Assembly: GCA_030700025.1 (NCBI GenBank)
Contig: JAUYKI010000006.1
Coordinates: 13,428-77,427 of the forward strand
Direction of reading: 5' to 3'
Length of the DNA stretch: 64,000 bases
From: a bacterium
Lineage (GTDB): Bacteria; Patescibacteriota; Minisyncoccia; UBA6257; 02-FULL-45-10c
Notes under the pieces: generated by a model
The model's database searches: none
What the model saw: only the letters and a program-made list of their open reading frames with translations
Told to the model about the DNA's origin: nothing
Program-made: the position numbers and the translations under genes
Part shown: one piece after another, positions 10,391 through 58,768 of the stretch
How positions within the stretch are numbered: position 1 is the stretch's first letter
Layout of the letters: each line of letters starts with the position of its first letter

Positions 10391-11475
10391 TGGCAAAAAA
10401 TTATTATCAAATTCTTGGGGTAGAAAAAAGCGCTTCGGAAGAGGACATAAAAAAAGCTTTTCGCAAGCTGGCGCATCAGCATCATCCGGATAAAGCCGGA
10501 GGCAATGAACAGAAGTTCAAAGAAATCAACGAAGCTTATCAGGTGCTTTCCAATAAAGAAAAGCGGTCTCAATATGACCGGTTCGGAAGGGTGGCAGACG
10601 GCGCTCAAGGCAACGGTCCTTTTGGCGGCCCGTTCAGCGGTTTTGGCGAAGGCTTTGATTTTAATTTTGACCCGTCCAATTTGGAGGATCTTTCCAATGT
10701 CAGCGATATTTTTGAGTCGTTTTTTGAAGGGCTGGGAATGAAAAAGAGGAAAACTTACCATCGGGGCGCGGACATTGAGGCCGTAAAAGAAATTTCGCTG
10801 GAAGAAGCTTTCCGCGGAATTGATTTGCGGTTGAAGGTGGAAACCGAATTGTCTTGCAAGCATTGCGCCGGTGCCGGTTATTTTTCTAAAGAAGGTTTTA
10901 CCAAATGCGGAGCTTGCGGGGGGCGGGGCGAGGTGCGGGAAACGCGCCAGACTTTTTTCGGGCAGTTTGCCCAAGTCCGGGCATGTTCCAAGTGCCGCGG
11001 ACAGGGAGAAATTCCGAATAAAATCTGTAATTATTGCAGTGGCAGTGGCCGGATAAAAGGAGAGCGGGAAGTGGAAATTGAAATCGCGCCCGGAATCGCT
11101 GACGGGCAATTAATCAAGGTAACCGGAGCCGGACAGGCGGGCGAACGGGGAGCCGGAGCCGGCGATCTTTACGCGCGGATTAAAATTAAACCGCATCATG
11201 ATTTTCAAAGAGTTAATAATGATTTGATTGTTAAAAAGAGCTTAAGCTTAACCGATATATTGCTTGGGAAAAAAGTGGAAATCCCAACAGTAGCCGGCGG
11301 GAAAATTAACGCGGAAATTCCCGAAGATTTTAATTTACGGGAACGATTGCGGATTCCGGGCGAAGGGATGCCAAGATTTGGTTCTTTTGGGCGCGGAGAC
11401 CTTTATGTGGAATTCCAGATTCGGACTCCGAAAAAGATTGATCCGAAAATCAAAAAGTTTTTGGAAGAGCTATAA
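10390..11475 (+). CDS. dnaJ: molecular chaperone DnaJ
   Basis: 361 aa; J domain with HPD (HQHHPDK), Gly-rich linker, four CxxCxGxG zinc-finger repeats; start overlaps dnaK stop. Confidence 0.92.
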
Positions 11476-11600
11476 TCCCCCACATAACAAAGACAATAGA
11501 TTTATGCCAAAACCAAGCTTTACTATAAAAACCAGTCGTTTATTAAAAAAACAAAGATTTAACGGACAATCTGCTCCGCGGTCTTTGTTATGTGGGGGAT
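11475..11600. repeat. Family-2 element copy 2 (ATCCCCCACATAACAAAGAC / GTCTTTGTTATGTGGGGGAT), between dnaJ stop and SGNH hydrolase start
   Basis: perfect 20-bp inverted repeat with compensatory A-to-C / T-to-G change relative to copy 1; ATG 11599 inside right arm. Confidence 0.8.
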
Positions 11601-12225: not shown

Positions 12226-12530
12226 ACTCGGAAACCTTTATTCTCCATTTTTGCTCAGCCGTACCACCTCTCCTCAACCCGCTCCGTTCGCTCCTGCGGC
12301 TCACTTCGCTTTGTCCTCGCGGCTCGGCCATCGAGGCTTCCGCCTTTAACGATGGGCCAAGCCCTCGCTCGCTGCGGGGGTATCGGAGAAGTAGTAACGG
12401 CTTCGCTTAAAAAATAAAGGTTTCCTCGCTAAATAAAAAAATAATAAGAAAAATCCTCCCTCACTTTTGTGAAAACGCAATAAAAAAATCCGCCATAGGC
12501 GGATTAACTTTCACAAGAGTGAGGGATCGG
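12226..12530 (+). repeat. Family-3 mosaic GC-rich repeat region
   Basis: modules CTCGGAAACCTTTATTCTCC, GCTCAGCCG.ACCAC.TCTCCTCAAC, ~130-bp unit shared with 49838-49976 (inverted), palindrome CCCTCACTTTTGT...ACAAGAGTGAGGG with inserted hairpin ATCCGCCATAGGCGGAT. Confidence 0.8.
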
Positions 12531-12542: not shown

Positions 12543-13307
12543 TTATTCAGCAGTGAGCTTGGACCAGACTCCGAAAGTCTGGGTTTTACAGCCCATGACT
12601 TCCTGGTAAATCGCCATGCCCAGATAAACTTTAGTTTCCATGGTGGCTTGCTGGAACGCTACTAAACCGGCGTCCATTTCAGCAAGGCGTCCAGATTTCT
12701 GAATGCCAATTAGTCCCATGCCAACTATGGCTTTATCTCCGGCTTTTTGGCAGAGAATTAATCCCACAGCTAACGCCGCTCGTTTGCCTGCTTTTTGATA
12801 GGCGACCAGTCCCAACAAATGGTCAATGTCATTTTCGGCAGATTCATACAGGGAAATTCCAGTAACAACTAAGATGTCTTTTTTAGCCCGCTGATATCCG
12901 GTTATTCCGAGGACAGTGACGGCATCGCGTCCGGCGCTCTGATATACGGTTATTCCGAGGGCGGTGGCGGCATCGCGTCCGGCGCTCTGATAGCCGGTTA
13001 TTCCGAAGCCGGTGGCGGCATCGCGTCCGGCGCTCTGATATCCGCCCAATCCGACGACGCTCATCGCATCCTCGTTAGCTTTTTGGTGAAGCGAGCAAAC
13101 AGAATAAATGCTTTTTTCGCTGACCGCGTTTCCGAAAACCGTGAAAATATTGCCGTTGATATTGATGGGCAGGCAAAGAATTGCCACCCAGGTCGCCATC
13201 TTAAGCGCCCGCAGGTGAGAGTATTTTACTCGTTTTTGGTTATTCCACATACACCATAAACAGAAGTAGACTATCGCGGTCAGGAAATACAGAACCAGAT
13301 TTTCCAT
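12543..13307 (-). CDS. membrane-anchored repeat protein (ten ~16-aa GxxGYQSAGRDAxT-like repeats), hypothetical
   Basis: 254 aa; N-terminal TM; three near-identical 48-bp tandem DNA units at 12900-13043 inside the CDS. Confidence 0.6.
   Translation of the reverse strand: MENLVLYFLTAIVYFCLWCMWNNQKRVKYSHLRALKMATWVAILCLPININGNIFTVFGNAVSEKSIYSVCSLHQKANEDAMSVVGLGGYQSAGRDAATGFGITGYQSAGRDAATALGITVYQSAGRDAVTVLGITGYQRAKKDILVVTGISLYESAENDIDHLLGLVAYQKAGKRAALAVGLILCQKAGDKAIVGMGLIGIQKSGRLAEMDAGLVAFQQATMETKVYLGMAIYQEVMGCKTQTFGVWSKLTAE
12900..13043. repeat. three near-identical 48-bp tandem repeats inside the CDS 12543-13307
   Basis: GGTTATTCCGAGG.C.GTG.CGGCATCGCGTCCGGCGCTCTGATA..C x3. Confidence 0.85.
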
Positions 13308-14145: not shown

Positions 14146-14165
14146 GCAAGGGTATTGACTCTTGC

Positions 14166-14270
14166 TTTTTTATTGTCTGAGGCTTTCTTCTCTCGCTACC
14201 GTTCAAACTCCCAGTCCCTCACTTTTGTACAAGAGTGAGGGAAGTTTTCACTGGGTTTCGGATTTCGCTC
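14166..14270 (+). repeat. Family-3 repeat unit, left part (interrupted by Family-1 copy B; right part 14403-14470)
   Basis: contiguous in the 58-kb homolog, split here by the 132-bp Family-1 element. Confidence 0.75.
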
Positions 14271-14402
14271 GCCCAGCCCTATTTATTTTGAGGAACATCC
14301 CGCAGGCGTATTTTGCTTGGACCACAAAATACGCCGAGGGCGAAGAAAATCCGGCCGCTGGAGCCGGATTATTCTGTTTCCGAGAAGTAGATAGGGCTGG
14401 GC
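14271..14402 (+). repeat. Family-1 element, copy B (full length with GCCCAGCCCTAT terminal inverted repeats; core 14292-14381)
   Basis: conserved 5-prime 57 nt; second stem AATCCGGC/GCCGGATT around loop CGCTGGA; nested inside a Family-3 repeat. Confidence 0.85.
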
Positions 14403-14510
14403 ACCATGCCCACTCAATCCTCGGCCCGCGCTACGGAGAAGAAAACCTCAGACACCTTTCTATATTTATGAAGTTGTAATATTTTTTTCATCCATCTATA
14501 CTTTATTTTA

Positions 14511-19194: not shown

Positions 19195-20895
19195 ATGAGA
19201 GACATAACTTTATTCGGACAAACAAACTTTCGGAACCAGAAAATCCGGTTCGGCATTAAGGTAGATGACCGCCGGAGGCACATGTATATCATTGGAAAAA
19301 CCGGCATGGGTAAGACCACTATGCTGGAGAATATGATTATTGCCGACATTAATGCCGGCCGGGGCGTTGGCATTGTGGATCCGCACGGCGAGCTGGCGGA
19401 AAAGATTTTAGACTTTGTTCCGGAAAGCCGGATTAAGGATGTAATTTATTTTAATCCCCAGGATTTGGAATTTCCGATTGCTTTTAATCCATTGGAGCAA
19501 GTAGGCACGGAATTCCGCCACTTGGTGGCTTCGGGAATTATGGGCGTATTTAAGAAGATATGGCCGGATGTCTGGTCGGCTCGTATGGAATATATTTTGA
19601 ACAATTCTTTACTGGCGCTTTTGGAATGCCCAGGCTCAACTTTGCTTGGCATTATGCGGATTTTGTCCGACAAAGAATACCGTAAAAAAGTAGTGGATAA
19701 TTTGAAAGACCCGGTGGTCAAGGGCTTTTGGGTAAATGAATTTGCCAAATATACCCAGCGGCTGGAAAGCGAGGCGACGGCAGCTATTCAAAACAAAGTT
19801 GGACAGTTCGTCACCAATCCGCTGATCCGTAATGTTTTAGGACAGGGGCATTCCACGGTGGATATGCGGAAGATTATGGACGAACGGAAAATTTTAATCG
19901 TTAACTTGTCTAAAGGAAGAATCGGAGAAGATAATTCCGCGCTTTTGGGAGCAATGATTATTACCAAGCTTCAGCTGGCAGCTATGTCACGGGTGGATAT
20001 TCCGGAAAAGGAGCGCCAAGACTTTTTCTTATACGTGGACGAGTTCCAAAACTTTGCCACCGATTCCTTTGCTAATATTTTATCGGAAGCCAGAAAATAC
20101 CGGCTTTGCCTGATTTTAGCGCACCAATATATCGGCCAATTGAGCCACGGAGATAATGATAAGGTGCGGGACGCGATTTTTGGTAACGTCGGAACTATGA
20201 TTTCTTTCCGGGTGGGCGCCGAAGATGGAGAATTTTTGGAAAAAGAATTCCAGCCGGACTTTATGATGAATGATTTTGTTAATTTATCCAAATATACTTT
20301 TTATACCAAGCTGATGATTGATGGAATCGCCTCCCGGCCTTTTTCCGCCCAGAATATTGAGCCATTTGTTCCTCCGGCGGTAGCGTTCCGGAATTCAATT
20401 ATTGACGAAAGCCGGAAACGGTACGGTACTGCCCGTTCCATTGTAGAAGTTAAAATTGCAGGCGAGTGGTTAGTGGATGGCGGCCGAACAGCGGATGAAA
20501 AGCCGCCCCGCCGCGAAGAAGGATTTGCGCGTCGGGATGATCGGCCCATGCATCGCGAGGAAAGGCCCGTTTATAGAGAAGACAGGCCTATGCGTAGCGA
20601 CGACAGGCCAATGCGCCGGGAAGAACGGCCATTATCAGAGGCCTTGCGCCCGGTTCCTCAGCGTTCAGATTTTCCGCCGCGCCGGAGCAATGATTGGCGG
20701 CCAGGCGGCCAGCCTACCAGCGATGGCATTCGCAGGATTCCGGTAAGGCGGGAAGAGTTCCGTCCGGCGCCGCAACCGATGGCCCCTCGGAACGATCAGC
20801 CAAGGCCAAAAGTAGACATTGCGGATTTGAAGAAGTCTTTAGACGAAATTTTATTAGATAAAATAACCAAAGAAGAAACGGGCGGAGAAGAATAG
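19195..20895 (+). CDS. AAA-like ATPase of the TraD/VirD4/HerA (DUF87-like) group with RED-rich repetitive C-terminal tail
   Basis: RRHMYIIGKTGMGKTT Walker A preceded by RH; IVDPHGEL; Walker B LYVDEFQNF; C-terminal DRPMxREERP-like repeats. Confidence 0.6.
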   Translation: MRDITLFGQTNFRNQKIRFGIKVDDRRRHMYIIGKTGMGKTTMLENMIIADINAGRGVGIVDPHGELAEKILDFVPESRIKDVIYFNPQDLEFPIAFNPLEQVGTEFRHLVASGIMGVFKKIWPDVWSARMEYILNNSLLALLECPGSTLLGIMRILSDKEYRKKVVDNLKDPVVKGFWVNEFAKYTQRLESEATAAIQNKVGQFVTNPLIRNVLGQGHSTVDMRKIMDERKILIVNLSKGRIGEDNSALLGAMIITKLQLAAMSRVDIPEKERQDFFLYVDEFQNFATDSFANILSEARKYRLCLILAHQYIGQLSHGDNDKVRDAIFGNVGTMISFRVGAEDGEFLEKEFQPDFMMNDFVNLSKYTFYTKLMIDGIASRPFSAQNIEPFVPPAVAFRNSIIDESRKRYGTARSIVEVKIAGEWLVDGGRTADEKPPRREEGFARRDDRPMHREERPVYREDRPMRSDDRPMRREERPLSEALRPVPQRSDFPPRRSNDWRPGGQPTSDGIRRIPVRREEFRPAPQPMAPRNDQPRPKVDIADLKKSLDEILLDKITKEETGGEE

Positions 20896-22648: not shown

Positions 22649-23224
22649 ATGCTTAAATACAGCGAATTAAAAGTGGGCACGGTTTTTCGGCTTGAGGGCC
22701 AGGTTTTTGAGGTTATAGAATATGAATTTTTGCGCATGCAGGCTTCTAAGCCGGTGGCAAAAGTCCGTTTAAAGAATTTAACTAGCGGACAGGTAGTTGG
22801 CCGGAATTTCCATTCTAATGAAACTTTTGAAGAAGTGGAAGCCGAATGGCAGCCGCTTACTTATCTATATAGTCATCGGGGTGAATTTTGGTTCTCCGAG
22901 AAAAGTAATCCCAAGAATCGATTTAAGCTTTCCGAAGAGCAATTGGGAGAAGTCAGCCAATTTTTAAAGCCGAACACGGAAGTGTCCGCTTTGAAATTAG
23001 ACGGAGAATTGGTCAGCGTTAAAGCTCCTATTAAAGTTGATTTTAAAGTTACCGAAGCGCCTCCGGGAGAACGGGGCAATACCGCGCAGGGCGGAAATAA
23101 AATAGTGACTCTGGAAACCGGAGCTAAGCTTGCCGTTCCGTTGTTTATTAATACCGGCGATATTGTCAGGGTAAATACTGTTTTGGGAGAATACGTGGAA
23201 AGAGTGGAGAAGTCCAAAGAGTAG
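22649..23224 (+). CDS. efp: elongation factor P
   Basis: 191 aa; EF-P three-domain layout, N-terminal KOW-like domain. Confidence 0.8.
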   Translation: MLKYSELKVGTVFRLEGQVFEVIEYEFLRMQASKPVAKVRLKNLTSGQVVGRNFHSNETFEEVEAEWQPLTYLYSHRGEFWFSEKSNPKNRFKLSEEQLGEVSQFLKPNTEVSALKLDGELVSVKAPIKVDFKVTEAPPGERGNTAQGGNKIVTLETGAKLAVPLFINTGDIVRVNTVLGEYVERVEKSKE

Positions 23225-23272
23225 GCTCATAATCCTTATTCTCATAAATAAGCTCCGCCATGGTTGCCGTAG

Positions 23273-23362
23273 GGAACATCCCGCAGGCGTATTTTGCTTG
23301 GACCACAAAATACGCCGAGGGCGAAGAAAGTTTTATCGCTGGAATAAAACTATTCTGTTTCC
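23273..23362 (+). repeat. Family-1 element, copy C (core)
   Basis: ~98% identical to copy A reverse complement; flanked by direct CCGTAGG heptamers. Confidence 0.85.
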
Positions 23363-23401
23363 CGTAGGCAATCTGGCGGAGCGAGTATGTGGAAGGAGAA
23401 T

Positions 23402-23433
23402 AAAAAAATCCCGTTATCTTGCGATAGCGGGAT
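23402..23433 (-). terminator. rho-independent terminator
   Basis: ATCCCGTTATCTTGCGATAGCGGGAT hairpin with T-run on minus strand after oxidoreductase gene. Confidence 0.6.
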
Positions 23434-23445
23434 TGCCTTTAATTT

Positions 23446-25299: not shown

Positions 25300-25494
25300 G
25301 CCCAGCCCTATCTATTTCTTGGAAACAGAATAGTTTTATTCCAGCCCCGACGTAAAGTCGGGGCTCCGACATCTTTATTTTAAAAATTTAATAACGAAGC
25401 GTCGGAGCGATAAAACTTTCTTCGCCCTCGGCGTATTTTGTGGTCCAAGCAAAATACGCCTGCGGGATGTTCCTCAAAACAGATAGGGCTGGGC
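25300..25494 (-). repeat. Family-1 element, copy D (full length, TIRs GCCCAGCCCTATCT; core 25321-25473 with 63-nt insertion in the CGCT/GGA loop)
   Basis: insertion itself forms two hairpins (GCTCCGAC...GTCGGAGC and CCCCGAC-TTTAC-GTCGGGG). Confidence 0.85.
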
Positions 25495-25579
25495 GCTCGG
25501 TTTGTTTGGGTATTGGGAAGGCGGTAGCGGCTTCGTTATTCTTGTTTAAGTTATAAAATCGTGATATAATATAATAACT

Positions 25580-27376
25580 ATGACCGAAAAAGGCCCCGAC
25601 TTCCTCAAAAAGAAATACGACCTCCACAAAGCTCCGGAAACGGAAACCGCCGCCAAGCGGACGGAAAAAAGAACTAACGAAAAAGTCCCTCAAGCTCCGG
25701 AAGCCCGCATCCAAAACTACCTCAACCGCTTCAAGGAAATCATAGACCGGAAAGACCCGGAAAAACGGGAAAGAGGCCTGGAAGCCATAAAAAAAGTCCT
25801 CTACGATAAATTCGTCATCCAAGAAAACGAAATCCCGGAATCATACTTTGAACTCCAAAAACGGATTGCGAGAGAACAAGGCCATGGAGAAATTGAAATC
25901 TCCAAAGAACAAAAAGACCAGCTAACCGAAGTAGTCATTACCGACCAAAGAACCACCTTGGATAACTGGGTAGACTACCTATCCTCTCCAGACGCCACCT
26001 ATCCGGACTGGCTCAAATACTGGACTATCCGGAGCATTCTGGGAATAGGCGAATACGACAAAGAAAAGAAAGAATTCACTAAACGCTCCAAAAGCACTAC
26101 CAAGCCCTTCCTGGATATCAATCGGGAAGCTTTAGCCTATGTGCTAGACGCCGTTTCCAAAAAATACGGCCAACAGCACACCAATCTCCTTAACCTCAAT
26201 GAGCAAGAAAGAAAAGACTTTGAATCCCTCCTCCAAGGAGAAAACTTCGCCAAACTCTATGCCTGGGCAATAGAAAAAACTACCGTCGCTCCTCAAGAAG
26301 CCCTGGCTAATACCCAAGGCAAATGGATTAAATACAACCAAGGACAAGACCATATGCCCTTAGTCCAATCCCTTCAAGGACACGGCACCGGCTGGTGCAC
26401 GGCCGGAGAATCCACCGCCAAAACCCAGCTTCAAGGAGGGGATTTCTATGTCTTTTACTCCATGGACAAAAAAGGCAAACCCACCCTTCCCAGAGTGGCT
26501 ATCCGCATGAACGGCAATCAAATCGGAGAAGTCCGGGGAATTGCTCCGGATCAAAACTTGGACCCCTATATCGGCGATATAGTCCAAAAGAAAATGACCG
26601 AATTTCCTGACGGCAAATCTTATGAGAAAAAAGCTGGAGACATGAAAATGCTGACTGCCATAGAACAGAAAACCCTTCGGCTCCGCTCAGGGCAAGCCAA
26701 TCAAGAATTGACCAGGGAAGAATTACATTTCCTCTATGAAATGAACCAAAAAATTCAAGGATTCGGCTATCAAAGAGACCCGCGGATTGAGGAACTAAGA
26801 AAACAAAGAAATTCGGAAGAAGATATGTTGATTATTTTTGAATGTACGAAAGACCAGATTGCCCACACTCCGAAAGAAATCAATTCAAATACTAAAGCCT
26901 ATGTCGGTAAAATTAAACTGGGTATTTTTCAAAAACTACCAGAAAATATCGAGCATGTTTATACTGAATTCCCTGACAAGAAAGTTTTTATGAAAGAGAT
27001 TGTCTCGGATGAAGAAATTATTTCTGCTAAAACCGCCATTCAAAAACTCGAAGTTCAAGGGCACAAAATTGGCGACTATGCCAGAGATATGTTATCCAAA
27101 GTAAATTGGAAGGAAAGTCTAAAAGACTCCTACAACATTATCTCTATTTCTGTTGGGGAACTTTTCGGTGACGCAAACTACCATAATTATGCCGATATCA
27201 AAGCCAAAGCTCGAGAAAGTGGCCTAGACATTATTCCAGCTTCTCTCGCTCCATCAATTCGTTTGAATTATGATAAAAATGGCGAGTGGACAGTCCTCGC
27301 TATGGAAGCGATGCGCGACCGTGACGGTAGTCTTAGGCGTTTCGGCTGGGACGGGGTGGTTCTGAGTCGTGGTTGA
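25580..27376 (+). CDS. DGR target protein (variable C-terminal CLec/FGE-like tail; VR frameshifted in this assembly, probable true end 27444)
   Basis: 3-prime 136 bp (27306-27441) homologous to TR at 27744-27879; differences almost all at TR adenines; AAC-codon register continues past the annotated stop in another frame, ending ...RFFFVRK. Confidence 0.75.
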   Translation: MTEKGPDFLKKKYDLHKAPETETAAKRTEKRTNEKVPQAPEARIQNYLNRFKEIIDRKDPEKRERGLEAIKKVLYDKFVIQENEIPESYFELQKRIAREQGHGEIEISKEQKDQLTEVVITDQRTTLDNWVDYLSSPDATYPDWLKYWTIRSILGIGEYDKEKKEFTKRSKSTTKPFLDINREALAYVLDAVSKKYGQQHTNLLNLNEQERKDFESLLQGENFAKLYAWAIEKTTVAPQEALANTQGKWIKYNQGQDHMPLVQSLQGHGTGWCTAGESTAKTQLQGGDFYVFYSMDKKGKPTLPRVAIRMNGNQIGEVRGIAPDQNLDPYIGDIVQKKMTEFPDGKSYEKKAGDMKMLTAIEQKTLRLRSGQANQELTREELHFLYEMNQKIQGFGYQRDPRIEELRKQRNSEEDMLIIFECTKDQIAHTPKEINSNTKAYVGKIKLGIFQKLPENIEHVYTEFPDKKVFMKEIVSDEEIISAKTAIQKLEVQGHKIGDYARDMLSKVNWKESLKDSYNIISISVGELFGDANYHNYADIKAKARESGLDIIPASLAPSIRLNYDKNGEWTVLAMEAMRDRDGSLRRFGWDGVVLSRG

Positions 27377-27441
27377 ATGACGATGATGGTCGCGATGACG
27401 ACAAGTGGGACGGTAACGGCCGGTTCTTCTTTGTTCGCAAG
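27306..27441 (+). repeat. DGR variable repeat (VR) at 3-prime end of target gene
   Basis: ~136 bp homologous to TR; about 20 TR-A to VR-G differences, 2 non-A differences, one 1-nt deletion in a G-run (27349-27357). Confidence 0.8.
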
Positions 27442-27494
27442 TAGCTTAATTCTTAAATCTTAAGCCCTTTAAACATCTCTTTTTCCTTATCCCT

Positions 27495-27523
27495 TATAAC
27501 TTTTTAAAAAATATTGTTATAAT
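27495..27523 (+). promoter_or_regulatory. candidate promoter with extended -10 (TGtTATAAT) reading toward the DGR template repeat
   Basis: TGTTATAAT at 27515-27523 in AT-rich spacer between VR and TR. Confidence 0.35.
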
Positions 27524-27743
27524 ATATCCGAAAGTAGGTGAATACGCAGACGACTAAGGTTTTCTGCCACCCAAATCAGTATCCATATATCGAGAATATT
27601 TCAGACCAAGGTTTGAAATAGAGTGGTGTATGCAGATTCTTCATAAAAAATGAAGTTACTTGGTTTAGAATCTAGGGCATTATGATGCCGAATACGATAC
27701 AGCTCTGAGAGTATTCTAGGGGCGGTGGTGTAGACGGATTCTA

Positions 27744-27879
27744 AACAATACGCGACCGTGACGGTAATCTTAGGCTTTTCAACTGCAACAGGAATGGTTC
27801 TGAGTCGTGGTTGAATAACAATAATGGTCGCGATGACAACAAGTGGAACGATAACAACCGGTTCTTCTTTGTTCGCAAA
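27744..27879 (+). repeat. DGR template repeat (TR)
   Basis: A-rich with many AAC/AAT codons in the target frame (NNNNGRDDNKWNDNN); followed by hairpin CTCTCCCGAT-TTTGT-ATCGGGAGAG. Confidence 0.8.
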
Positions 27880-27884
27880 TTATT

Positions 27885-28250
27885 TCATTTCTCTCCCGAT
27901 TTTGTATCGGGAGAGTTTTGTTTTGTAAGCTGTCCAAACCAACCGCCAAGCATTTTACCCACCTCATTTATTTTTTCTGAAAGCGCAATATATTTTTTAT
28001 TATCAAGCGACTTGTTTTCCCAAAGAATAAGGAGAAAGATGTTGAGCGTATTGATTTTTTTAATTGCAAGCCTTACATAAGGCGCCTTTTCTTCTCGAGA
28101 AAGAAAAACGGCAACAGAAATAGCCTCTATTGTATCGGTAAATAGATTATCTATCTTTTGACCGATGGTATATCTATGGTTTTTAGGTAGGATCCGGTAA
28201 TATTCATACCAAAGCTGGTAACCGCCTTTGATTTTCTGCAGAATTGGCAA
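27885..28250 (-). CDS. avd: DGR accessory variability determinant (Avd-like four-helix-bundle protein)
   Basis: 121 aa; resembles bAvd/four-helix-bundle family (YQLWYEYYRILPKNHRYTIGQKI ... INEVGKMLGGWFGQL); TTG start; opposite strand to TR and RT. Confidence 0.65.
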   Translation of the reverse strand: MPILQKIKGGYQLWYEYYRILPKNHRYTIGQKIDNLFTDTIEAISVAVFLSREEKAPYVRLAIKKINTLNIFLLILWENKSLDNKKYIALSEKINEVGKMLGGWFGQLTKQNSPDTKSGEK

Positions 28251-28293
28251 TAAATTTGCGAGGGGGGGGGGCTTTTAATGGATCGTTATTGTT

Positions 28294-29286
28294 ATGAAAA
28301 TTCAATTGGCTCATAAATTTGAAGACATTATAAGCGTGGAAAATCTATTGGAGGCATGGAGAGAATTTATCCGAGGAAAACGGAGCAAAAAAGACGCCCA
28401 AGAATTTTCTATTAACTTGATAGATAATATTTTCTCGCTTCATTCCGACCTTGCTGATTTTACCTATAAGCACGGCGGTTATCAAGCCTTTAATATAAGC
28501 GACCCTAAGCCGAGGAATATCCATAAGGCCAGCGTCCGAGACCGCCTGCTTCACCATGCTATTTATAGAATTCTTTACCCATTTTTTGATAAAACTTTTA
28601 TTCCTGATTCTTATTCCTGCCGGATAAATAAGGGTACGCATAAAGCCATAAATCGGCTCCGCTCTTTTGCTTACGAAGTCAGCCGGAATAACACTAAAAC
28701 CTGCTGGATATTAAAGATGGATATAAGAAAATTTTTTGCCAATATTGACCACCTTATTTTACAGGATATTTTGAAGCAATACATACCGGATAAAAATATC
28801 TTATGGCTTTTAGATAGAGTGACTGAGAGTTTTTCCTCGCCATACGGCAATAATAAGGGTTTGCCCCTGGGCAATCTAACCTCCCAACTATTGGTGAATA
28901 TCTATATGAATGAATTAGACCAGTTTGTGAAGCATAAATTAGGAATTAGGCATTATATAAGATACGCGGATGATTTTGTGATTTTGCATGAAAATCGGCA
29001 GTATCTTATAAATCTTTTGCCAAAGATGTCAGTATTTTTAGAAACGCGATTAAAGCTTTTGCTCCATCCGTATAAAGTATTTATTAAAACACTTGCCTCT
29101 GGAGTTGATTTTCTTGGCTGGGTGCATTTCCCGCGCCATCGGATATTGCGGACCGTAACTAAACGAAGAATGTTTAAAAAAATAAATCAAAATCCTACAA
29201 ATGAAACCGCGGCTTCATATTGGGGATTACTTAGTCATGGAAATACGCACAAGCTGATTCATAAAATACGAAAGCTACTCTACTAA
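28294..29286 (+). CDS. diversity-generating retroelement reverse transcriptase
   Basis: 330 aa; RT motifs incl. YADD (IRYADDFVIL); DGR-type motif 4 LPLGNLTSQ (SQ instead of group-II QG); DRLLHHAI motif 2. Confidence 0.85.
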   Translation: MKIQLAHKFEDIISVENLLEAWREFIRGKRSKKDAQEFSINLIDNIFSLHSDLADFTYKHGGYQAFNISDPKPRNIHKASVRDRLLHHAIYRILYPFFDKTFIPDSYSCRINKGTHKAINRLRSFAYEVSRNNTKTCWILKMDIRKFFANIDHLILQDILKQYIPDKNILWLLDRVTESFSSPYGNNKGLPLGNLTSQLLVNIYMNELDQFVKHKLGIRHYIRYADDFVILHENRQYLINLLPKMSVFLETRLKLLLHPYKVFIKTLASGVDFLGWVHFPRHRILRTVTKRRMFKKINQNPTNETAASYWGLLSHGNTHKLIHKIRKLLY

Positions 29287-34646: not shown

Positions 34647-34691
34647 GATTGTAAATCACTTTTGCGTTTTAAAATCTAAAATCGAGGCAAT

Positions 34692-34781
34692 ATCTCTTTA
34701 AAGGAACATCCCGCAGGCGTATTTTGCTTGGACCACAAAATACGCCGAGGGCGAAGAAAGTTTTGCCGCTGGAGCAAAACT
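34692..34781 (+). repeat. Family-1 element, copy E (core; flanks ATCTCTTT / AAAGAGAT)
   Basis: second stem AGTTTTGC/GCAAAACT, a compensatory AT to GC change relative to copies A/C; loop CGCTGGA. Confidence 0.85.
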
Positions 34782-35230
34782 ATTCTGTTTCCGAAAAGAG
34801 ATGTAGCCGAGATCCTTGACAAAGTTCGGGTATCTGTTATACTACCCCATAGTACATTAGCAGTGAGCAATCTTCGGGGTTCCGCCTGCCAGCGGAGCCT
34901 ATACAAATCCTGACGGGGTTTAGCAAGTAGTAAAGCTACAAAGCGCGTGGCGCTTTACTCGTCAGGCAGGCGCGACACCTTACGTTTTTTGGTGTCGTGG
35001 GGCGCTTCGGTGAAAATCGAAGTCCTGGTCAGCGCAGCCAGTCGCCGAATGAGATCTCTCCCGATGCAGGTCGGAAAGTATGATCCTCGGCGCGGCGCAG
35101 AGCGGCAAAGTCCCCGAACGCCTTCCTATCGGAAGGTATGGAAGCCCACCAGCCCCGACTTAATTGTCGGGGCCATTTTTTTATTCGCCTCGCTTTAGTA
35201 AAGGCGGATTTTTTATTACAATAGGCAGAT

Positions 35231-40274: not shown

Positions 40275-40431
40275 ATAGCATACCCAGTACTACAATAAAG
40301 ATTGCTTGCGGTACGTGGAGCTGACATCAAAAAATAAATTTAATGTTTTTATCGATAAAATACCCGATATTAACTTAATCATATTCCGCAAGAATAGCTC
40401 TTATCTTTGTTGTAGTACTGGGCATATTGAG
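40275..40431. repeat. long imperfect inverted repeat (ATAGCATACCCAGTACTACAATAAAGATTGCTTGCGG / CCGCAAGAATAGCTCTTATCTTTGTTGTAGTACTGGGCATATTGAG) between convergent ndk and permease genes
   Basis: 13-bp perfect core CCCAGTACTACAA / TTGTAGTACTGGG with extended imperfect pairing; encloses ~75 bp. Confidence 0.65.
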
Positions 40432-44391: not shown

Positions 44392-44527
44392 ATCCCACAC
44401 ATAACTGCGATTTAATCCCCAAAGCCGTGAAGTTTGGCAATAAGGCTTAGTTTTTAGCTATTGGCTTAATAAACAACGAACAACCCCTGGGATTAACTAG
44501 CTTTGCAATCGCAGTTATGAGTGGGAT
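44392..44527. repeat. Family-2 element copy 3 (ATCCCACACATAACTGCGAT / ATCGCAGTTATGAGTGGGAT), 36 nt upstream of rpmB
   Basis: outer 14 bp as in copy 1; inner 6 bp replaced on both arms (compensatory); one mismatch. Confidence 0.75.
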
Positions 44528-51800: not shown

Positions 51801-54800
51801 ATGTCCTCTGAAGAACACCAACAAAATTTTAAAGAGGCCTTGCTTCATTATTTTGGCATCTTAGTTTTAGCTTTAATTTTTCTTTTCCCGGGAAAGCCCC
51901 AGGCTGCTCCAGGGCCGTTGCCACAACTGGTGGGCTATCTTGCGGTGGATTCCGGCGCTAATGTTTTTCATACCTATGATTCTATAGATATCGCGGGAAC
52001 TAAAGTTTTTCTGGCTATGAAAAACCGCAATGTTATTCGGGTGGTAGATGTTTCGTCTCCAACGAACCCTGCCATTATTGCTACATCTTCTCCTTTAGCG
52101 GCAGATTTTTTTATCGGATTGGTAAATAATATCGCGTACACTATTATGGGAAATTATTTCCAAACGGTGGATATTTCCAATATAAATAATATGCCCGTTT
52201 TGGATAATTGGGGTTCGTATGGTTTGGCGCCAACCTCATTGGCTACTCGAAATGGTTATACCTATGTTTTGTATTTAATGGAGAACAAGATGCGAATTTT
52301 CGACGTAACTAATTCCGCTAATATTCAAAATGTCGGAACTATCAGCACTAGTCCGCACCCGGCCTATATTCGCATTAAAGATTCCTACGCCTATGTTATA
52401 ACCACAGGAATGTTGTCAGCGCCAACTCTAGAAATATATGATTTAGCCGATCCATCAAGGCCAATACAGGTTGGAAAAATTAGTACCGTATATGCCGCGC
52501 ATGGCCTTCGAATTGCCGGAAATTTTGCCTATGTATTAGTAGGCCTAAATACATTGCAAGCTTATGATATATCCGATCCGACACAACCAAGGGCCGTAAG
52601 CGCCATTCAAATTGATAATCAGTCGCCTGCTTTAGATATCGCCGGAAATTGCGCTTATGTAGTAAGCCGGGGAGCCAATACCTTGCAAGTTTTTAATATT
52701 GCCGACCCCTTGCACTTGAAAAGGTCTGGATCAGTTAATCTCGGTCCTGGCGTTACTCCGGCCGATATTAGGGTGACTAATAATTATGCTTATGTCGCTA
52801 ATAACTCCTCGCAAACATTACCGAGCCGATCGAATTTAGAGATTTTTGACATCAGCAACGTTCAGGCACAAGGATGCCCGGGCATTGATGCTACTTCGGT
52901 TTCGTTATCATCGGCTCCAATAGTAACTACGACCACCGCGATTCCGAATTCTTGTCCGGCGCTGGTGAATTTAAACCCGACCGTACAGGGTCAGACAGGC
53001 GTACTAGGAATATCTTATAATTTAGAAACTATCAAAGTTTCTGGAAATTGGGCGTTTGTTATTGCCCAGGATCTAAATACTTTAAATTCTATTAATATTT
53101 CCGACGTAACCCAGGTAGCTCTTAGAACTAGGCAAGGCGGCGCCAGCTTCATCAGAACCGGATCGCTCCCCCTTGATCTTTTTGTATCGGGAAATTTTGC
53201 TTACGTAATTACCGGTTCTAATTTGCTTCAGGTCTTTGACGTTTCTGACCCTTTAAATATGAGTTTGGTGGGAACGATTGCTACGCATCAAAGCCCAAAT
53301 TCGGTATTTGTTTCCGGCCAATATGCTTATGTAGTGAATACCGGACCTCGAACTTTGCAAATTTTTAACGTGGCTAACCCCCAAAATATCTCAGAGGTTA
53401 GTTCTTTAAAAGTAGATGGTGCCGGCTACGGCGTCGCGGTAACTAATGGTTACGCTTATGTGATTAATGGGATCGGAAAAGATTTGAGAGCTTATGACGT
53501 CAGTAATCCCGCTAATCCAAGATTGGCCGGATTGATTGGAACTACCGGCGCGCCCAGCGGTTTATTTATTAAAAATAATTTCGCTTACGTAGTTACACAT
53601 TTAGGATTAGAAATTTTTGATATTTCTAATCCATCCCAAATTCAGAAACGCGGCCAGTCAGCAGTCACCGCGTTATCCCGGTCAATATTTGTTACCGAAA
53701 ACTATGCCTATGTGGGAAAAATAAGCGGGGCAGTTGCCGATCCGAATAGTGGATCCACGGTTCAGGCCAATTGGGTAATTTTTGATATTTCCGATCCGGA
53801 TAATCCAAGAATCGCGGCCGGTAATTTTAGCAATCGGATTTTTGACTATGGACTTTATATGCGATCCACTTTTGTAGTTGGCAATTACGCTTTTGTCACC
53901 GAGAACTCCATCACTCGCGGCCAAAACAGTTCTATACGGGTTTTTTGCATTTCTCCTACAGAAAGCGGTGTGGCTTGCGGTTGTCCGCCGCCGACTCCAG
54001 CTCCAGCGCCCACTGTTGCCACAGCGGTTGCTCCACCCGTGAGTCCGGTGGTTACGGCGCCGACAACTAGCTCGCTTAATTTGGCATTAGCGCCGGAGTT
54101 GGTTGGTTCGGCCCAGACCGGAGACGAACCAGTTTCAATTTTTATTTATGGCCATCATTGTTACGTTATCAACCGCATTACCGGCTCGGTTCAAATTTTT
54201 GATATTTTGGATCCGAATAGTCCGGTTTTAGTAGGAGAGTTTCAAACTGATCCCGGGCCGGAGAGAATAGAAGTCGCGGACGGTTTTGCTTATGTGGTTA
54301 GCGGAGCTTCGGACACGCTCCAAATTTATAATGTTTCTGATCCCAGCAATCCGCGATGGGTAAGTTCCATCAGAACCGGCAGATTTCCGAATTTCATCCG
54401 AAGATCCGGGCAATATATTTACGTCACTAATCGGGATTCTAATACGTTACAAGTTTTTGATGTTTCCAATTCCGCGAGCCCGAGATTGGTTAGCAGCGCC
54501 AATTTAGGGCCTTGCACTTGCCACACCTACATAATTAATAATTATATTTATATTACTAATGAAGGATCTAATGCTTTGCAAGTTTTTGACATTGCGGATC
54601 CGACCCGTCCTCGTTTAGCCGGTTCGGCAATTACCCGGCCAAATCCCCGCGGAATTTATGTTTTTGGAAGCTATGCTTATGTTTTGAGTTATCAAGGAAA
54701 TACTCTGGAAGTTTTTGATGTCTCTAGTCCTTCCCGGCCTCGGTCGTTGGGTTGGACCAATACCGCCGCGGGCGCGCATTCCATTTTTATCCGGGGGCCT

Positions 54801-57320
54801 TACGCTTTTGTAACTGCTTTTGACGCCCACCAGCTCCAGGTTTTTGACATTAGCGATCCGGCTAGTCCGGCGCTGGTTACCTATATTAATACCGGGCCAT
54901 GCGCTTGCGGTTTATACGTTGCCGGAGATTACGCTTATGTTTTAAATACCAATGGAGACGCGCTTCAAGTTTTTGATATCAGCAGGGTATTGGCCCGTCG
55001 GGCGAATGCCAGGATATTGCGTCCCGTATTTATCAATCGTTTTAATACCGGAGCGGATCCGCAGGATCTTTGGGTAGCCGATCAAACTGTTTACGTAAAT
55101 CCTGTTTCGTCCGAAAGAGTCCAGATTATTGATTTTTCCAATCCGGATAATCCGGTGAATGTCGGCATTGTCCGTACCAATGGCGATTCGCGCTCGGTTT
55201 TTGTGTTTGATTGCTTGACTGGAAAATGTTTGTGCGTAGTAAATTGGATTACTAATACAATTCAGATTTTTGATATTTCCAACCCGAATCGTCCGCGGGA
55301 AACGGGCCGGGCTAATTTAAGTTTGGGCGCTTGGGACGTAGACGTTGCGGCGCCCTACGCTTATTCGGTGAGTTATAACTCCGGAATCTTAGAAGTTACT
55401 GATTTATCCAATCCTAATAGTCCGGCAGTAGTGGGCCGGGCCAGCACTAATCCCCAGCCATTCGCGGTTGAAGTAGCCGGCAGTTATGCCTATGTAATTA
55501 GTTTTGGTTCCGACGAAAGCCCGACAGCGCGGGGAACATTGGAAATTTTTAATGTTTCTAACCCATTTTTGCCGGTTCGGGTCAGCAGTATTCCAACCAG
55601 CAGAAGCCCCAGAGGAATTTTTATTTCCGGCAATAATGCGTACGTAGTTAACTGGGACGCCAATAATTTAGAAGTTTTTGATATTACTTCGCCGTTTAAC
55701 CCTAGCTTGATTGGTTCTATCGGCACCGGCCAGAATCCGCGATCTGTATTTGTAGAAAATAATCTTGCTTATGTCGCGAATACCGGATCGGATACTTTGC
55801 AAGTGTTTGACGTTTCCAATCCTTCGGCAATGGCTCTTCTTTATGATTTAGCAACTGATCAGGATCCAAGAGCGGTTTTCGTTGATGACCCATTTGTTTA
55901 CGTCGCTAATAGCGGTCCGGACACGGTTCAAGTATTTGATCTTTACGGCGGCACCAGTGTTTTTCCGTCCGCATCTCCATTAGCAGAATTTTTTGCAGCG
56001 GCTTTGCCTCCGGAAGCGGTAACAGTTGTCGGAGAGGCGAGGTCAATTGAATTGGCTTTATCATCGCCAGTGACGGCAGAGGAATCAGAATTGATTTCGC
56101 CGTTGACCGAGGGCGTAACGGAGCCGGTTGCGCTGCCGGAAGATGAAGTTGTAGCAGCTCAGCTCCAAACTCCAGGACAGCCGGAAAATCTGGTAGACGA
56201 ATCCATAACCCCGGTAATTCCGATACTGGAATTACAAACTCCTAATTTATTTGCGCCGGAAATTTACAATAGCCAATTATCAGCTCCGGCGCCCGCTCCG
56301 ATTGCGGTTTCTTTATCTCCGCAAGAACAATTAAATATTACTGCGAATCAAGAAAGAGCTAGGCAGGCAGCTCAATTAGCGAGACAAGCCGTATCCGAAG
56401 CGCGTTTATTGGCGGATCAGGCGGAGGCGGTGGCGGATCAGGCGAGGAATTCAATCAATGAAGCGGAGCGGGCGATTTATCCGTCGCTTCTGGCTATGAA
56501 TCCGAACAATCTTATTAATTTGCCGCAATTGGGCGTTCCCGGGGCGCAAGGAGTTATTCAAGCAAGCCAGGAAATCGCCGAGCAATTGCAAGAAGCAGTA
56601 ACGGCAATGGAAGAAGCGATTGAAGAAGCGGAACAATCGGCAGAGGTAGCGCAAGCTGAATTAGAAAATGCCGAGAATGCAGTTAGCGTTTCTGATGCCC
56701 AATCCGCAGCCGACAGAGTCCAAGATGCTGTTGATGACGTTGTGGCTCAAACCAATGAAGCGTCGGCGCAAGCGGAACAAATTTTGGCGTTAGCCGAACA
56801 GGTCAGCCAAATTACGGAACAAGCCGATGTTTTGGCTGAGTCCGCGTCGGTTTTGCCGGATTCCATTATAGCTTCGGACCTAAGTCAATTAACGGCCGAC
56901 CTACTTTCCTTAGAAGGGGACCGCCGTATGACTGGCGGAGGAAGTTTTGCCGATGCTACGCATGGCTTTGAATTACATTGCGACGCTAATGATTTGCCGA
57001 ATAATTTAGAAATTAATTGGCTGGGACGCGGACGAAGTTCGGGAAGCCATTATTTTCATTTAGAAAATCTAGTTTCTGCCGTTTGCAGTGATGATTCCGA
57101 AATTGACGAGGAGATGCCGGTGGCGGGATTTGATACTTATGTCGGATCGGGCCACGGTCGGTATGACGGAATTTCCGGCGCGACAATAGAATTTACTTTA
57201 ACGGATGCCGGCGAGCCGGGCAGAAATGATTTTACCAAAGTGGTAATTAAAGATAAGGACGGCGCAGTAGTTTTGGATGCTTCCGGCGCTCTTAAGTTCG
57301 GCAATCATCAGGCGCATTAA
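51801..57320 (+). CDS. giant surface protein with >25 LVIVD-type beta-propeller repeats, Pro/Thr linker, coiled-coil region and unique C-terminal domain
   Basis: 1839 aa; signal-anchor; repeated units ...YAYV...LQVFDISNPxxPxxVG...; APTPAPAP linker ~aa 720; AEQ-rich coiled coil ~aa 1500-1650. Confidence 0.75.
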   Translation: MSSEEHQQNFKEALLHYFGILVLALIFLFPGKPQAAPGPLPQLVGYLAVDSGANVFHTYDSIDIAGTKVFLAMKNRNVIRVVDVSSPTNPAIIATSSPLAADFFIGLVNNIAYTIMGNYFQTVDISNINNMPVLDNWGSYGLAPTSLATRNGYTYVLYLMENKMRIFDVTNSANIQNVGTISTSPHPAYIRIKDSYAYVITTGMLSAPTLEIYDLADPSRPIQVGKISTVYAAHGLRIAGNFAYVLVGLNTLQAYDISDPTQPRAVSAIQIDNQSPALDIAGNCAYVVSRGANTLQVFNIADPLHLKRSGSVNLGPGVTPADIRVTNNYAYVANNSSQTLPSRSNLEIFDISNVQAQGCPGIDATSVSLSSAPIVTTTTAIPNSCPALVNLNPTVQGQTGVLGISYNLETIKVSGNWAFVIAQDLNTLNSINISDVTQVALRTRQGGASFIRTGSLPLDLFVSGNFAYVITGSNLLQVFDVSDPLNMSLVGTIATHQSPNSVFVSGQYAYVVNTGPRTLQIFNVANPQNISEVSSLKVDGAGYGVAVTNGYAYVINGIGKDLRAYDVSNPANPRLAGLIGTTGAPSGLFIKNNFAYVVTHLGLEIFDISNPSQIQKRGQSAVTALSRSIFVTENYAYVGKISGAVADPNSGSTVQANWVIFDISDPDNPRIAAGNFSNRIFDYGLYMRSTFVVGNYAFVTENSITRGQNSSIRVFCISPTESGVACGCPPPTPAPAPTVATAVAPPVSPVVTAPTTSSLNLALAPELVGSAQTGDEPVSIFIYGHHCYVINRITGSVQIFDILDPNSPVLVGEFQTDPGPERIEVADGFAYVVSGASDTLQIYNVSDPSNPRWVSSIRTGRFPNFIRRSGQYIYVTNRDSNTLQVFDVSNSASPRLVSSANLGPCTCHTYIINNYIYITNEGSNALQVFDIADPTRPRLAGSAITRPNPRGIYVFGSYAYVLSYQGNTLEVFDVSSPSRPRSLGWTNTAAGAHSIFIRGPYAFVTAFDAHQLQVFDISDPASPALVTYINTGPCACGLYVAGDYAYVLNTNGDALQVFDISRVLARRANARILRPVFINRFNTGADPQDLWVADQTVYVNPVSSERVQIIDFSNPDNPVNVGIVRTNGDSRSVFVFDCLTGKCLCVVNWITNTIQIFDISNPNRPRETGRANLSLGAWDVDVAAPYAYSVSYNSGILEVTDLSNPNSPAVVGRASTNPQPFAVEVAGSYAYVISFGSDESPTARGTLEIFNVSNPFLPVRVSSIPTSRSPRGIFISGNNAYVVNWDANNLEVFDITSPFNPSLIGSIGTGQNPRSVFVENNLAYVANTGSDTLQVFDVSNPSAMALLYDLATDQDPRAVFVDDPFVYVANSGPDTVQVFDLYGGTSVFPSASPLAEFFAAALPPEAVTVVGEARSIELALSSPVTAEESELISPLTEGVTEPVALPEDEVVAAQLQTPGQPENLVDESITPVIPILELQTPNLFAPEIYNSQLSAPAPAPIAVSLSPQEQLNITANQERARQAAQLARQAVSEARLLADQAEAVADQARNSINEAERAIYPSLLAMNPNNLINLPQLGVPGAQGVIQASQEIAEQLQEAVTAMEEAIEEAEQSAEVAQAELENAENAVSVSDAQSAADRVQDAVDDVVAQTNEASAQAEQILALAEQVSQITEQADVLAESASVLPDSIIASDLSQLTADLLSLEGDRRMTGGGSFADATHGFELHCDANDLPNNLEINWLGRGRSSGSHYFHLENLVSAVCSDDSEIDEEMPVAGFDTYVGSGHGRYDGISGATIEFTLTDAGEPGRNDFTKVVIKDKDGAVVLDASGALKFGNHQAH

Positions 57321-57345
57321 TGTATCCTCGGGCATATTGTTTTTC

Positions 57346-57435
57346 GGAAACAGAATAAATTTTTTCCAGCGAAAAATTTTTCTTCGCCCTCAGCGCATTT
57401 TGTGGTCCAAGCAAAATGCGCCTGCGGGATGTTCC
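57346..57435 (-). repeat. Family-1 element, copy F (core; flanks ATATTGTTTTT / AAAAACAATAT)
   Basis: second stem AAATTTTT/AAAAATTT; first stem carries compensatory GCGCATTTTG...CAAAATGCGC. Confidence 0.85.
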
Positions 57436-57517
57436 TAAAAACAATATACCCTTAGCTAATTGACTCAATTTTAAGGAAATAAAAAAAACCGCCGGTTCAT
57501 CCAGCGGTAAATATATT

Positions 57518-58464: not shown

Positions 58465-58495
58465 GATATTAGCATATCAATAGCTTGTTTGTCAA
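58465..58495 (-). promoter_or_regulatory. promoter module TTGACA-18-TAATAT (copy 2)
   Basis: same 35-bp module upstream of the zinc-ribbon gene 58191-58427. Confidence 0.55.
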
Positions 58496-58499
58496 GTTG

Positions 58500-58766: not shown

Positions 58767-58768
58767 CT

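Follow-up and report, generated by a model that had tools for sequence, protein, structure and literature searches.

A strand-specific hairpin repeat with a conserved three-way junction is dispersed behind genes of Patescibacteria

Results

Six intergenic hairpins among housekeeping genes

The 64-kb window (the whole stretch of DNA that was analysed) carried housekeeping genes encoding DnaB, CysS, CorA, HrcA-GrpE-DnaK-DnaJ, SecD, EF-P, MnmA, ComEC, DnaG, RpoD, AlaS and ribosomal proteins. Closest named relatives of the window proteins were found in Candidatus Harrisonbacteria and other Patescibacteria, at 60–76% protein identity. A reverse transcriptase was encoded at 28294-29286, within a diversity-generating retroelement that had template and variable repeats of its own and was separate from the hairpin family described here.

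Searching the whole window with a 27-nt probe to hairpin 1 (up to 3 mismatches) returned exactly six sites, with 0 expected from shuffles, in agreement with the six copies of an intergenic element reported by the first-pass annotation. Core limits were set by the anchors GGAACATCCCGCAGG (start) and TTCTGTTTCC (end). On this basis the coordinates first given for copies A, B, C, D and F stood, and those of copy E (34692-34781) were 11 nt too low; corrected positions are listed in Table 1. All six copies were intergenic, as had been claimed: the ORFs that overlapped them (14162-14479, 25388-25822, 22997-23308 and 57292-57567) lay in different frames and were without support. The unit had been described as ~90 bp long, but the complementary flanks belong to the element, which extends the whole hairpin to ~130–140 nt. 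When folded with its flanks, each window copy gave a single hairpin of 130–140 nt with a predicted energy of −45 to −74 kcal/mol, corresponding to z-scores of −4.7 to −9.0 against shuffles. Copy D was longer than the other window copies because 63 nt split its loop (CGCT...GGA). With respect to transcription signals, copy A preceded the extended −10 of the CorA gene (TGTGTTATAAT) by 16 nt, and a T-run terminator was present ~25 nt upstream of the 5′ end of copy F.

Table 1. Positions of the six hairpin copies, the parts of copy B and associated features in the window
Feature	Core	Full extent	Strand	Remarks
Copy A	3919-4008	3895-4032	−	base TTAGCC-GA.../...GA-GGCTAA
Copy B	14292-14381	14271-14402	+	outer helix GCCCAGCCCTAT.../...ATAGGGCTGGGC
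Copy B, P1		14292-14295 paired with 14378-14381	+	
Copy B, P2		14299-14340	+	loop L2 CTTGGACCA at 14316-14324
Copy B, J23		14341-14343	+	CGA
Copy B, P3		14344-14375	+	loop L3 CGCTGGA at 14356-14362
Copy C	23273-23362	23252-23382	+	between EF-P stop codon and bidirectional terminator
Canonical intrinsic terminator (A-run, hairpin, T-run)		23402-23436		common to EF-P and convergent FAD oxidoreductase gene
Copy D	25321-25473	25300-25494	−	outer stem almost the same as that of copy B
63-nt insertion in loop L3 of copy D		25343-25405	−	two CCGAC...GTCGG hairpins
Copy E	34703-34792	34681-34813	+	base ATC-GA.../...GA-GAT
Sigma-70-type promoter		34816-34843	+	TTGACA 34816-34821, 16-nt spacer, TATACT 34838-34843; flush with 3′ end of copy E
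Copy F	57346-57435	57326-57455	−	3′ end abuts stop codon of convergent 1839-aa ORF
Stop codon of ORF 51801-57320		57318-57320	+	5 nt from base of copy F

Architecture of the hairpin

The element consists of a long basal helix (15–20 bp in the window copies) carrying a three-way junction. Its core comprises P1 (GGAA/UUCC), the joining segments J12 (CAU), J23 (CGA) and J31 (GU), and two arms. In the window copies, P2 is formed by CCC/GGG, an internal loop and an 11-bp helix closed by the loop CUUGGACCA, and P3 by AGAA/UUCU and a variable 8-bp helix closed by the loop CGCUGGA. The junction strands (GGAA-CAU-CCCG, GAGGG-CGA-AGAA and UUCU-GU-UUCC) were almost invariant, while the basal helix and the two arms conserved pairing alone and varied in both sequence and length. 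Purine-rich GA internal loops interrupted the basal helix, with tandem GA loops at both its ends, and the non-Watson-Crick pairs seen in the outer helix of the window copies were G·U, never A·C.

Several details of the first-pass annotation could be read directly in the sequence, namely the P3 stem variants GTTTTAT, GTTTTGC, ATCCGGC and AATTTTT, the invariant CGCTGGA loop (split by the insertion in copy D), a compensatory pair in hairpin 1 of copy F, and the GCCCAGCCCTAT arms common to copies B and D. The copy-specific, mutually complementary outer flanks were likewise real and correspond to the 15–20 bp basal helix.

A large family in Patescibacteria

Loop L2 and the length of P2 are lineage-specific, which is why an initial pattern, CAGG-N9-CTTGGACC-N10-CNGAGGGCGAAG, gave 0 matches to genome, metagenome or viral contigs. 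A pattern confined to the junction (GGGCGAAGAAA-N(18-32)-TTCTGTTTCC) matched 61 loci in metagenomes and 53 in genomes; nearly all of the metagenome matches spanned 44 nt, as in the window copies. A covariance model built from the six window copies, a check proposed in the first-pass annotation, revealed a large family: it produced 61 matches on the metagenome loci (E from 1e-27 to 2e-6) and matched 41 of 41 Patescibacteria MAG loci, with no match in 12 pattern-positive loci from other phyla. A second model, built from the matches of the first, added a few divergent copies. In all, the Patescibacteria MAG loci gave 47 matches. After removal of near-duplicates, 99 distinct copies were retained, with family members being 120–190 nt long.

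Carrier MAGs were labelled Azam-, Harrison-, Wolfe-, Brenner-, Lipton- and Colwellbacteria, together with two Parcubacteria bins, a Hainich bin and several Saccharibacteria, and the metagenome copies came from groundwater contigs. An additional copy with a P2 of the window type was present in a relative with 80% CorA identity (L121). Copy density reached six in 64 kb in the window and 11 in ~121 kb of one MAG, with two to three per short contig elsewhere. No match to the element was found in phage and plasmid collections. A search of Rfam 15 (4227 models), also proposed at the outset, did not link the element to a described family: at the gathering score the window contained two tRNAs only and 20 related loci tRNAs only, and at E < 10 three copies gave chance miRNA-type matches of ≤18 bits only. 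A literature search that included sequence strings found no description of the element. The window copies belong to a large family of structured repeats in Patescibacteria.

The family consensus reads AAAGC-GA-[~14-bp helix]-AGA-GGAA-CAUCCCG(C/G)AG-[P2] in its 5′ part and, after P2, C-GAGGGCGAAGAAA-[7-bp P3]-CGC(U/A)GGA-[P3′]-AUUCUGUUUCC-GAGA-[helix′]-GA-GC in its 3′ part. Both the sequence and the length of P2 varied; its 5′ side usually contained GCUUGGU, and an extra hairpin was often included. The segment GGAACAUCCCG was identical in 77 of 93 parseable copies, though it lay outside the search pattern. In divergent members, P1 was replaced by CGAC/GUCG and P3a by GAG/CUC. The loop motifs GCUUGGU (L2) and CGC(U/A)GGA (L3) were conserved; 10 copies, most of them from one subfamily, had neither. 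The hairpin tips accommodated expansions.

Covariation and strand specificity

Among the six window copies, 94% of cells paired and 17 pairs changed on both sides, which none of 500 shuffles reached. For 59 distinct family sequences, in an alignment fitted to the model, 95.2% of cells paired, double changes occurred in 42 of 44 pairs, and the covariation score was 0.64 compared with 0.17 in shuffles and ≤0.12 for slid partners. Across the family, 111 G·U pairs were counted versus 15 A·C pairs. The first-pass annotation had argued from multiple independent compensatory changes for selection on a three-stem structure. The structure was upheld, with the same three-way junction recurring in all 99 distinct copies and both-sided changes in nearly all pairs as given above; pairing was indeed kept among the six window copies, but their stem differences were mostly swapped modules and not independent point compensations.

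An alignment-independent comparison of fold stability favoured the sense strand over its complement in 93 of 99 copies under RNA parameters (mean difference −7.2 kcal/mol) and in 89 of 99 under DNA parameters. This advantage was seen in 22 of 22 copies lying sense to both neighbouring genes and in 27 of 28 lying antisense to both. The hairpin fold is strand-specific and, being independent of neighbour orientation, the asymmetry is a property of the element and not of the host transcript.

Position relative to genes, promoters and terminators

Of 72 copies with two called neighbours, 28 were antisense to both, 22 sense to both, 16 were located between convergent and six between divergent genes. 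Co-orientation with an adjacent gene, which had been noted for the window copies, is therefore not a property of the family. The 3′ end of the element faced the stop codon of a convergent gene in 53 copies, lying within 23 nt of it in 35 with a sharp mode at 6 nt, and distances to genes on the 5′ side were broad. Approximately 13 other copies, including copy E, were followed by a strong sense promoter whose −35 hexamer started 6–7 nt past the 3′ end, with the −10 at 16–18 nt; promoter spacers were unrelated between copies. The element thus sits behind genes, in the terminator slot.

Upstream of the element, no positional promoter signal was detected (eight scattered matches in 95 flanks), and strong sigma-70 promoters were readily seen elsewhere in the same loci. 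Of 91 copies, 19 had a canonical terminator 15–35 nt ahead of the 5′ end, compared with 3–4 on the 3′ side. Some copies were located between a terminator and the next promoter, so that they may not be transcribed at all. The element itself does not qualify as an intrinsic terminator, with no T-run after its 3′ end and only ~3 U after a mismatched base on the other strand.

The 426 ORFs within 2.5 kb of copies contained no recurrent family, the largest clusters being DnaK, release factor, IleRS, TrmD, L31 and similar. Neither a transposase nor any other linked protein gene was found among the window ORFs scanned or near the 99 copies (loci of 8–20 kb). A role as a riboswitch or cis-regulatory leader was rejected on the grounds that the neighbours are unrelated housekeeping genes and that 28 copies are antisense to both of them.

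Gain, loss and exchange of modules

Comparisons of related loci revealed gain and loss between close strains. Copy C was absent from a relative (L001) with an 84% identical FAD oxidoreductase, in which only the shared terminator lay between that gene and EF-P; the same relative carried another repeat in place of copy D. In one pair of loci with 96–99% identical flanks, L008 carried a copy between stop codon and promoter where L102 had a 25-nt terminator-like hairpin. The difference extended through half of the promoter spacer and was a replacement, not a clean insertion. It was also the single match in a search for empty sites by joined flanks, which recovered no clean empty site. Upstream of the CorA promoter, the slot occupied by copy A in the window held a different sequence in L120, a 95%-identical relative with a contig end 66 nt before CorA, and a second repeat family in the 80%-identical L121.

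Whole modules were also swapped between copies. Copies B and D had nearly the same outer helix, with three differences passing through G·U, and differed at six of seven pairs of P3, which implies that P3 was exchanged as a block and not mutated stepwise. The orthologous copies L046 and L063 had the same flanks and outer helix with different P2 modules, and copy C and the L121 copy had a common 20-bp outer helix with three compensatory double changes and a swapped P3. The P3 alleles ATCCGGC and GTTTTGC recurred in unrelated MAGs.

Copy B, like L062, L080 and L081, occupied a hairpin slot within a larger repeat, and this repeat also occurred with the slot empty at 57915-58085. Insertion of the core into pre-existing palindromes was considered and rejected in part: arm similarity decayed gradually outward and no empty GCCCAGCCC palindrome was present in the window, but copy B and several MAG copies do occupy the hairpin slot of the larger repeat.

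Ends of the element

Most copies in Parcubacteria Gr01-1014_3 read TTA-ACAAAGCGGA...GGAGCCC-TTA, and in six of eight the 3′ TTA was the stop codon of different convergent genes. Extended basal helices usually ended at TA on both sides (copy A reads TA-GCCGA...GAGGC-TA), and TA frequency peaked at +7/+8 from the 3′ end. Mirrored TA was observed 26 times compared with 19 ± 3 expected when flanks were re-paired as a control, that is, weakly above control. These observations suggest that TA or TAA targets may be duplicated. The 3′ flank tended to begin with TT(A/G), and no fixed motif was seen on the 5′ side of the other strand; a PATE derived from IS200/IS605 would be expected to insert 3′ of a fixed tetra- or pentanucleotide and to be biased in orientation with replication.

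Outer arms were complementary within a copy and different between copies, so that no identical terminal inverted repeats across copies were found; the extreme ends (ACAAAGCGGA and GGAGCCC) were not inverted repeats of each other. No parent insertion sequence with matching ends and a transposase was present among the window ORFs scanned or near the 99 copies. Orientation relative to local GC skew (35 versus 49) was not significant (p = 0.06).

Other candidate identities were examined and set aside. Integron attC sites combine conserved R″/R′ motifs at the ends with a variable centre and occur in cassette arrays; here the centre is conserved and the ends vary, and the copies are single and dispersed among housekeeping genes. 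Intron and 5S-like readings were ruled out on context or consensus. Hand mapping onto the core consensus of the hammerhead ribozyme (CUGANGA / GAA / UH) failed, and Rfam models for ribozymes (hammerhead, twister, twister-sister, pistol, hatchet, HDV-like), riboswitches, 5S, SRP and Y RNA gave no match.

Discussion

We tentatively regard the element, with a probability of roughly 45%, as a non-autonomous mobile or recombining structured repeat, analogous to ERIC, REPIN, Correia or BOX elements and, on this reading, recognised in single-stranded form. Its dispersal, lineage variants, turnover, block exchange, lack of a promoter or terminator of its own and a fold that is blind to transcription fit the class of structured intergenic repeats; these features also suggest recognition of a single strand by a factor encoded elsewhere. 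Such an element would spread and turn over within genomes as a non-autonomous unit, with copies recombining with one another and/or transposing via a single-stranded intermediate. The folded junction would be recognised by a conserved trans-acting factor, and copies would survive where a long hairpin is harmless or useful, as in the terminator slot behind genes, where they may affect termination or mRNA ends.

Among known systems, ERIC/IRU elements (~127 bp) are similar in size and, like the present family, are imperfect palindromes folding into one long hairpin. Both have tens to hundreds of intergenic, mostly gene-distal copies in either orientation, are conserved across genera, and are without coding capacity or a linked transposase. 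ERIC has been reported to exert orientation-dependent effects on mRNA stability in Yersinia. In contrast to ERIC, which is conserved over its full length, only an asymmetric apical three-way junction is conserved here while the stems vary; the two are dissimilar in sequence and come from different host phyla, and a TA duplication, reported for ERIC, is here no more than suggested. REP/REPIN sequences are likewise hairpin-forming intergenic repeats dispersed at gene ends, with long vertical persistence and genome-specific variants, and their recognition as single-stranded hairpins would fit the strand-specific fold. However, REPIN arms (the REP sequences) are conserved and the loop is variable, whereas here the arms vary and the apex is conserved; the present element has no GTAG-type 5′ motif, and the RAYT/Y1 (HUH) transposase of REPINs was found neither in the window nor in the 8–20-kb loci around copies.

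Correia elements (CREE/NEMIS) of Neisseria and BOX elements of pneumococci are also structured, gene-adjacent repeats of ~100–150 bp able to contribute promoter or terminator functions, to which the copies with a −35 box exactly at the element boundary may be compared. BOX elements share a modular build with exchangeable or variable internal modules. Correia elements differ in their 26-bp terminal inverted repeats, which are conserved and have no counterpart here, and in a TA duplication, which is here no more than suggested, and BOX modules differ in being conserved in sequence; neither family has a conserved three-way junction. Finally, multi-copy structured RNA motifs in Rfam (Breaker-laboratory catalogues) resemble the element in that they combine conserved unpaired nucleotides with co-varying stems and hairpins of variable length and come mainly from uncultivated bacteria, but copy number per genome and strain turnover here exceed those of typical RNA genes, and Rfam 15 contains no matching model.

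Some observations speak against mobility. A near-invariant, asymmetric junction of ~35 nt that several candidate orders have in common would be more usual in a functional RNA than in a selfish repeat, and GA loops and expansion-tolerant hairpin tips are classic RNA features. There is no linked transposase, the ends are not conserved terminal inverted repeats, and the GC-skew result does not support single-strand transposition of the IS200/IS605 type. The near-invariant junction, the GA loops and the conserved loop motifs, both of which 10 copies lack, leave substantial probability to a functional RNA module, which we consider possible rather than probable. The element would then act as a stable small RNA whose 5′ and 3′ ends pair or, within transcripts, as a cis-acting module for processing, self-cleavage or protein binding. 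The junction would provide the active or binding site, and the many copies would be paralogues kept by selection. Junction strands that stay near-invariant while all helices co-vary, tolerance of G·U and not of A·C, tandem GA internal loops at both ends of the basal helix, L2 and L3 motifs that are conserved in all but a few copies, hairpin tips that tolerate expansions, and compensatory double changes between related copies in two genomes speak for such a module. Of the 72 copies with two called neighbours, however, 28 have a folded strand that is antisense to both, the upstream flanks show no positioned promoter and no terminator follows, and the sense terminator often found just upstream would block read-through into the element. 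Moreover, dozens of copies per ~1-Mb genome together with turnover between strains would be unusual for an RNA gene, and the ribozyme and riboswitch models of Rfam gave no match, even at E < 10.

A bolder variant, which we consider rather doubtful, would make the junction an active RNA centre. It could be a ribozyme of a new kind, self-cleaving or processing, or it could dock a protein specific to Patescibacteria that binds RNA or is guided by it. The element would then be a mobile RNA cassette that installs this function at the gene ends of an entire bacterial radiation with tiny genomes.

Cut-and-paste movement as a MITE, driven by an IS630/Tc1-like or IS5-like DDE transposase duplicating a TA/TAA target, would explain why copies abut TAA stop codons. 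The TTA ends in Gr01-1014_3, with the 3′ TTA serving as the stop codon of different genes in most of these copies, the TA at both ends of extended basal helices and the TA peak past the 3′ end are consistent with this. We nonetheless find it improbable: terminal sequences are not conserved among copies, the extreme ends are not inverted repeats, mirrored TA exceeds its control weakly, a mechanism that cuts and pastes both strands would leave the strand specificity of the fold unaccounted for, neither the window nor the surroundings of the copies revealed a parent IS or transposase, and the L008/L102 pair represents a replacement.

It is similarly hard to credit that the element is an elaborate terminator or insulator evolving in place without mobility, its hairpin stopping or protecting the transcript of the upstream gene. 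This would suit an element that fills the gap between stop codon and next promoter, replaces a simple terminator-like hairpin in L008 relative to L102, is depleted between divergent genes, and has an A-rich 5′ leader, AAAGCGA, that becomes UCGCUUU after the hairpin on the other strand. That U-tract, however, is 3–4 nt long, is parted from the main helix by mismatches and is on the strand that most flush genes would transcribe, while abutting genes usually transcribe the strand opposite to the best-folding one; canonical terminators are frequently adjacent anyway, and termination has no need of a conserved 35-nt junction.

Recognition as a double-stranded DNA site by a nucleoid or regulatory protein just upstream of promoters, to which the ~13 copies with a precisely spaced −35 and a proper −10, and the copies between terminator and next promoter that are perhaps untranscribed, might be attributed, is very improbable given that a promoter adjoins only a minority of copies, that duplex recognition does not require helices to co-vary and that the strand asymmetry would be left unexplained.

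Patescibacteria have genomes of ~1 Mb with little room for non-coding DNA, and yet the element occupies roughly 1–1.5% of the sequence examined. That ~35 nt of junction are almost unchanged across lineages whose housekeeping proteins are 60–75% identical points to a conserved partner, be it a protein or a catalytic activity. Should the junction prove catalytic or protein-guiding, the element would represent a new class of RNA particular to the candidate phyla radiation; otherwise, it would be the first well-defined ERIC/REPIN-like repeat family of that radiation. The family is also a natural system for following how copies trade stem modules while pairing is preserved, and the covariance model is ready for annotating Patescibacteria genomes. 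Logan contigs were observed to break inside copies, and the element may serve as a marker explaining why Patescibacteria assemblies break.

Family 1 within a larger structured repeat

A larger structured repeat was identified in two copies in the window, each following the layout CTCCCAG, a CCCTCAC palindrome, CACTGGGTYTCGG..TTCGCTCG, a hairpin slot and CACCCTGCCCGCTC..GCGCTACGGAGAA. In one of these the slot was occupied by family-1 copy B, in the other by a simple hairpin, GTCCCGC-TTCG-GCGGGAC. The repeat, which had no Rfam family, was also present in other Patescibacteria loci (e.g. L062, L080 and L081); in L121, a relative with 80% CorA identity, it lay upstream of CorA.

Hairpins of the CCGAC...GTCGG kind were found inside family 1 itself: two of them made up the 63 nt inserted into copy D's loop L3 (25343-25405), and the P2 tip of the Parcubacteria Gr01-1014_3 copies was of the same kind. 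Family-1 copies accounted for 1.8% of all collected sequence, and 11 of the 28 such hairpins in that sequence fell within them; loci listed with them, from relatives, metagenomes or MAGs, were L070, L075, L099, L110, L113, L114 and L118.

Two Logan contigs from source sample SRR13727534 (L003 1-57 and L005 1-131) ended inside family-1 copies A and D, showing that this repeat breaks up short-read assemblies of the source organism.

Other repeats and neighbouring genes

A second hairpin repeat family, distinct from family 1, was recognised at three sites, with conserved arms (ATCCCACACATAACAAAGAC / GTCTTTGTTATGTGTGGGAT), a variable centre of 85–94 nt and a 3' arm overlapping the ATG of the downstream ORF. 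Palindromes of the form CCCTCACTTTTG...CAAGAGTGAGGG had either a 2-nt loop or a 34–46-nt centre carrying a terminator-like hairpin; one was also present in L001 (60-150), the relative with an 84%-identical FAD oxidoreductase. A 276-nt nested hairpin (-123 kcal/mol) had perfect 21-bp outer arms, and one of its inner units contained the family-1 J23 string GAGGGCGAAG. Two more long intergenic hairpins had arms of 23 and 17 nt, with 100–116 nt between arms.

Just upstream of the target gene of a complete diversity-generating retroelement (DGR), on the opposite strand, lay family-1 copy D; DGR template and variable repeats mismatched mainly at template adenines. Internal repeats were also observed within two ORFs, and a third, surrounded by housekeeping genes, encoded type IV secretion coupling-protein domains (TrwB/TraG-like).

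Window coordinates of repeats and associated features
Feature	Position	Detail
Larger repeat	14200-14470	copy B in slot
Larger repeat	57915-58085(-)	simple hairpin in slot
Second hairpin family	7071-7217	HrcA-like ORF, 7196
Second hairpin family	11475-11600	GDSL lipase ORF, 11590
Second hairpin family	44392-44527	ORF, 44517
Palindrome	12457-12526	
Palindrome	14216-14241	
Palindrome	58015-58040	
Nested hairpin	58495-58770	
Long hairpin	40280-40425	
Long hairpin	5149-5298	
DGR	25580-29286	
DGR target gene	25580-27376	
DGR variable repeat	about 27306-27451	
DGR template repeat	27743-27889	
DGR reverse transcriptase	28294-29286	RVT_1
ORF	12543-13307(-)	48-nt tandem repeats, 12838-13070
1839-aa ORF	51801-57320	129-nt (43-aa) repeats, 52500-56000
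TrwB/TraG-like ORF	19195-20895
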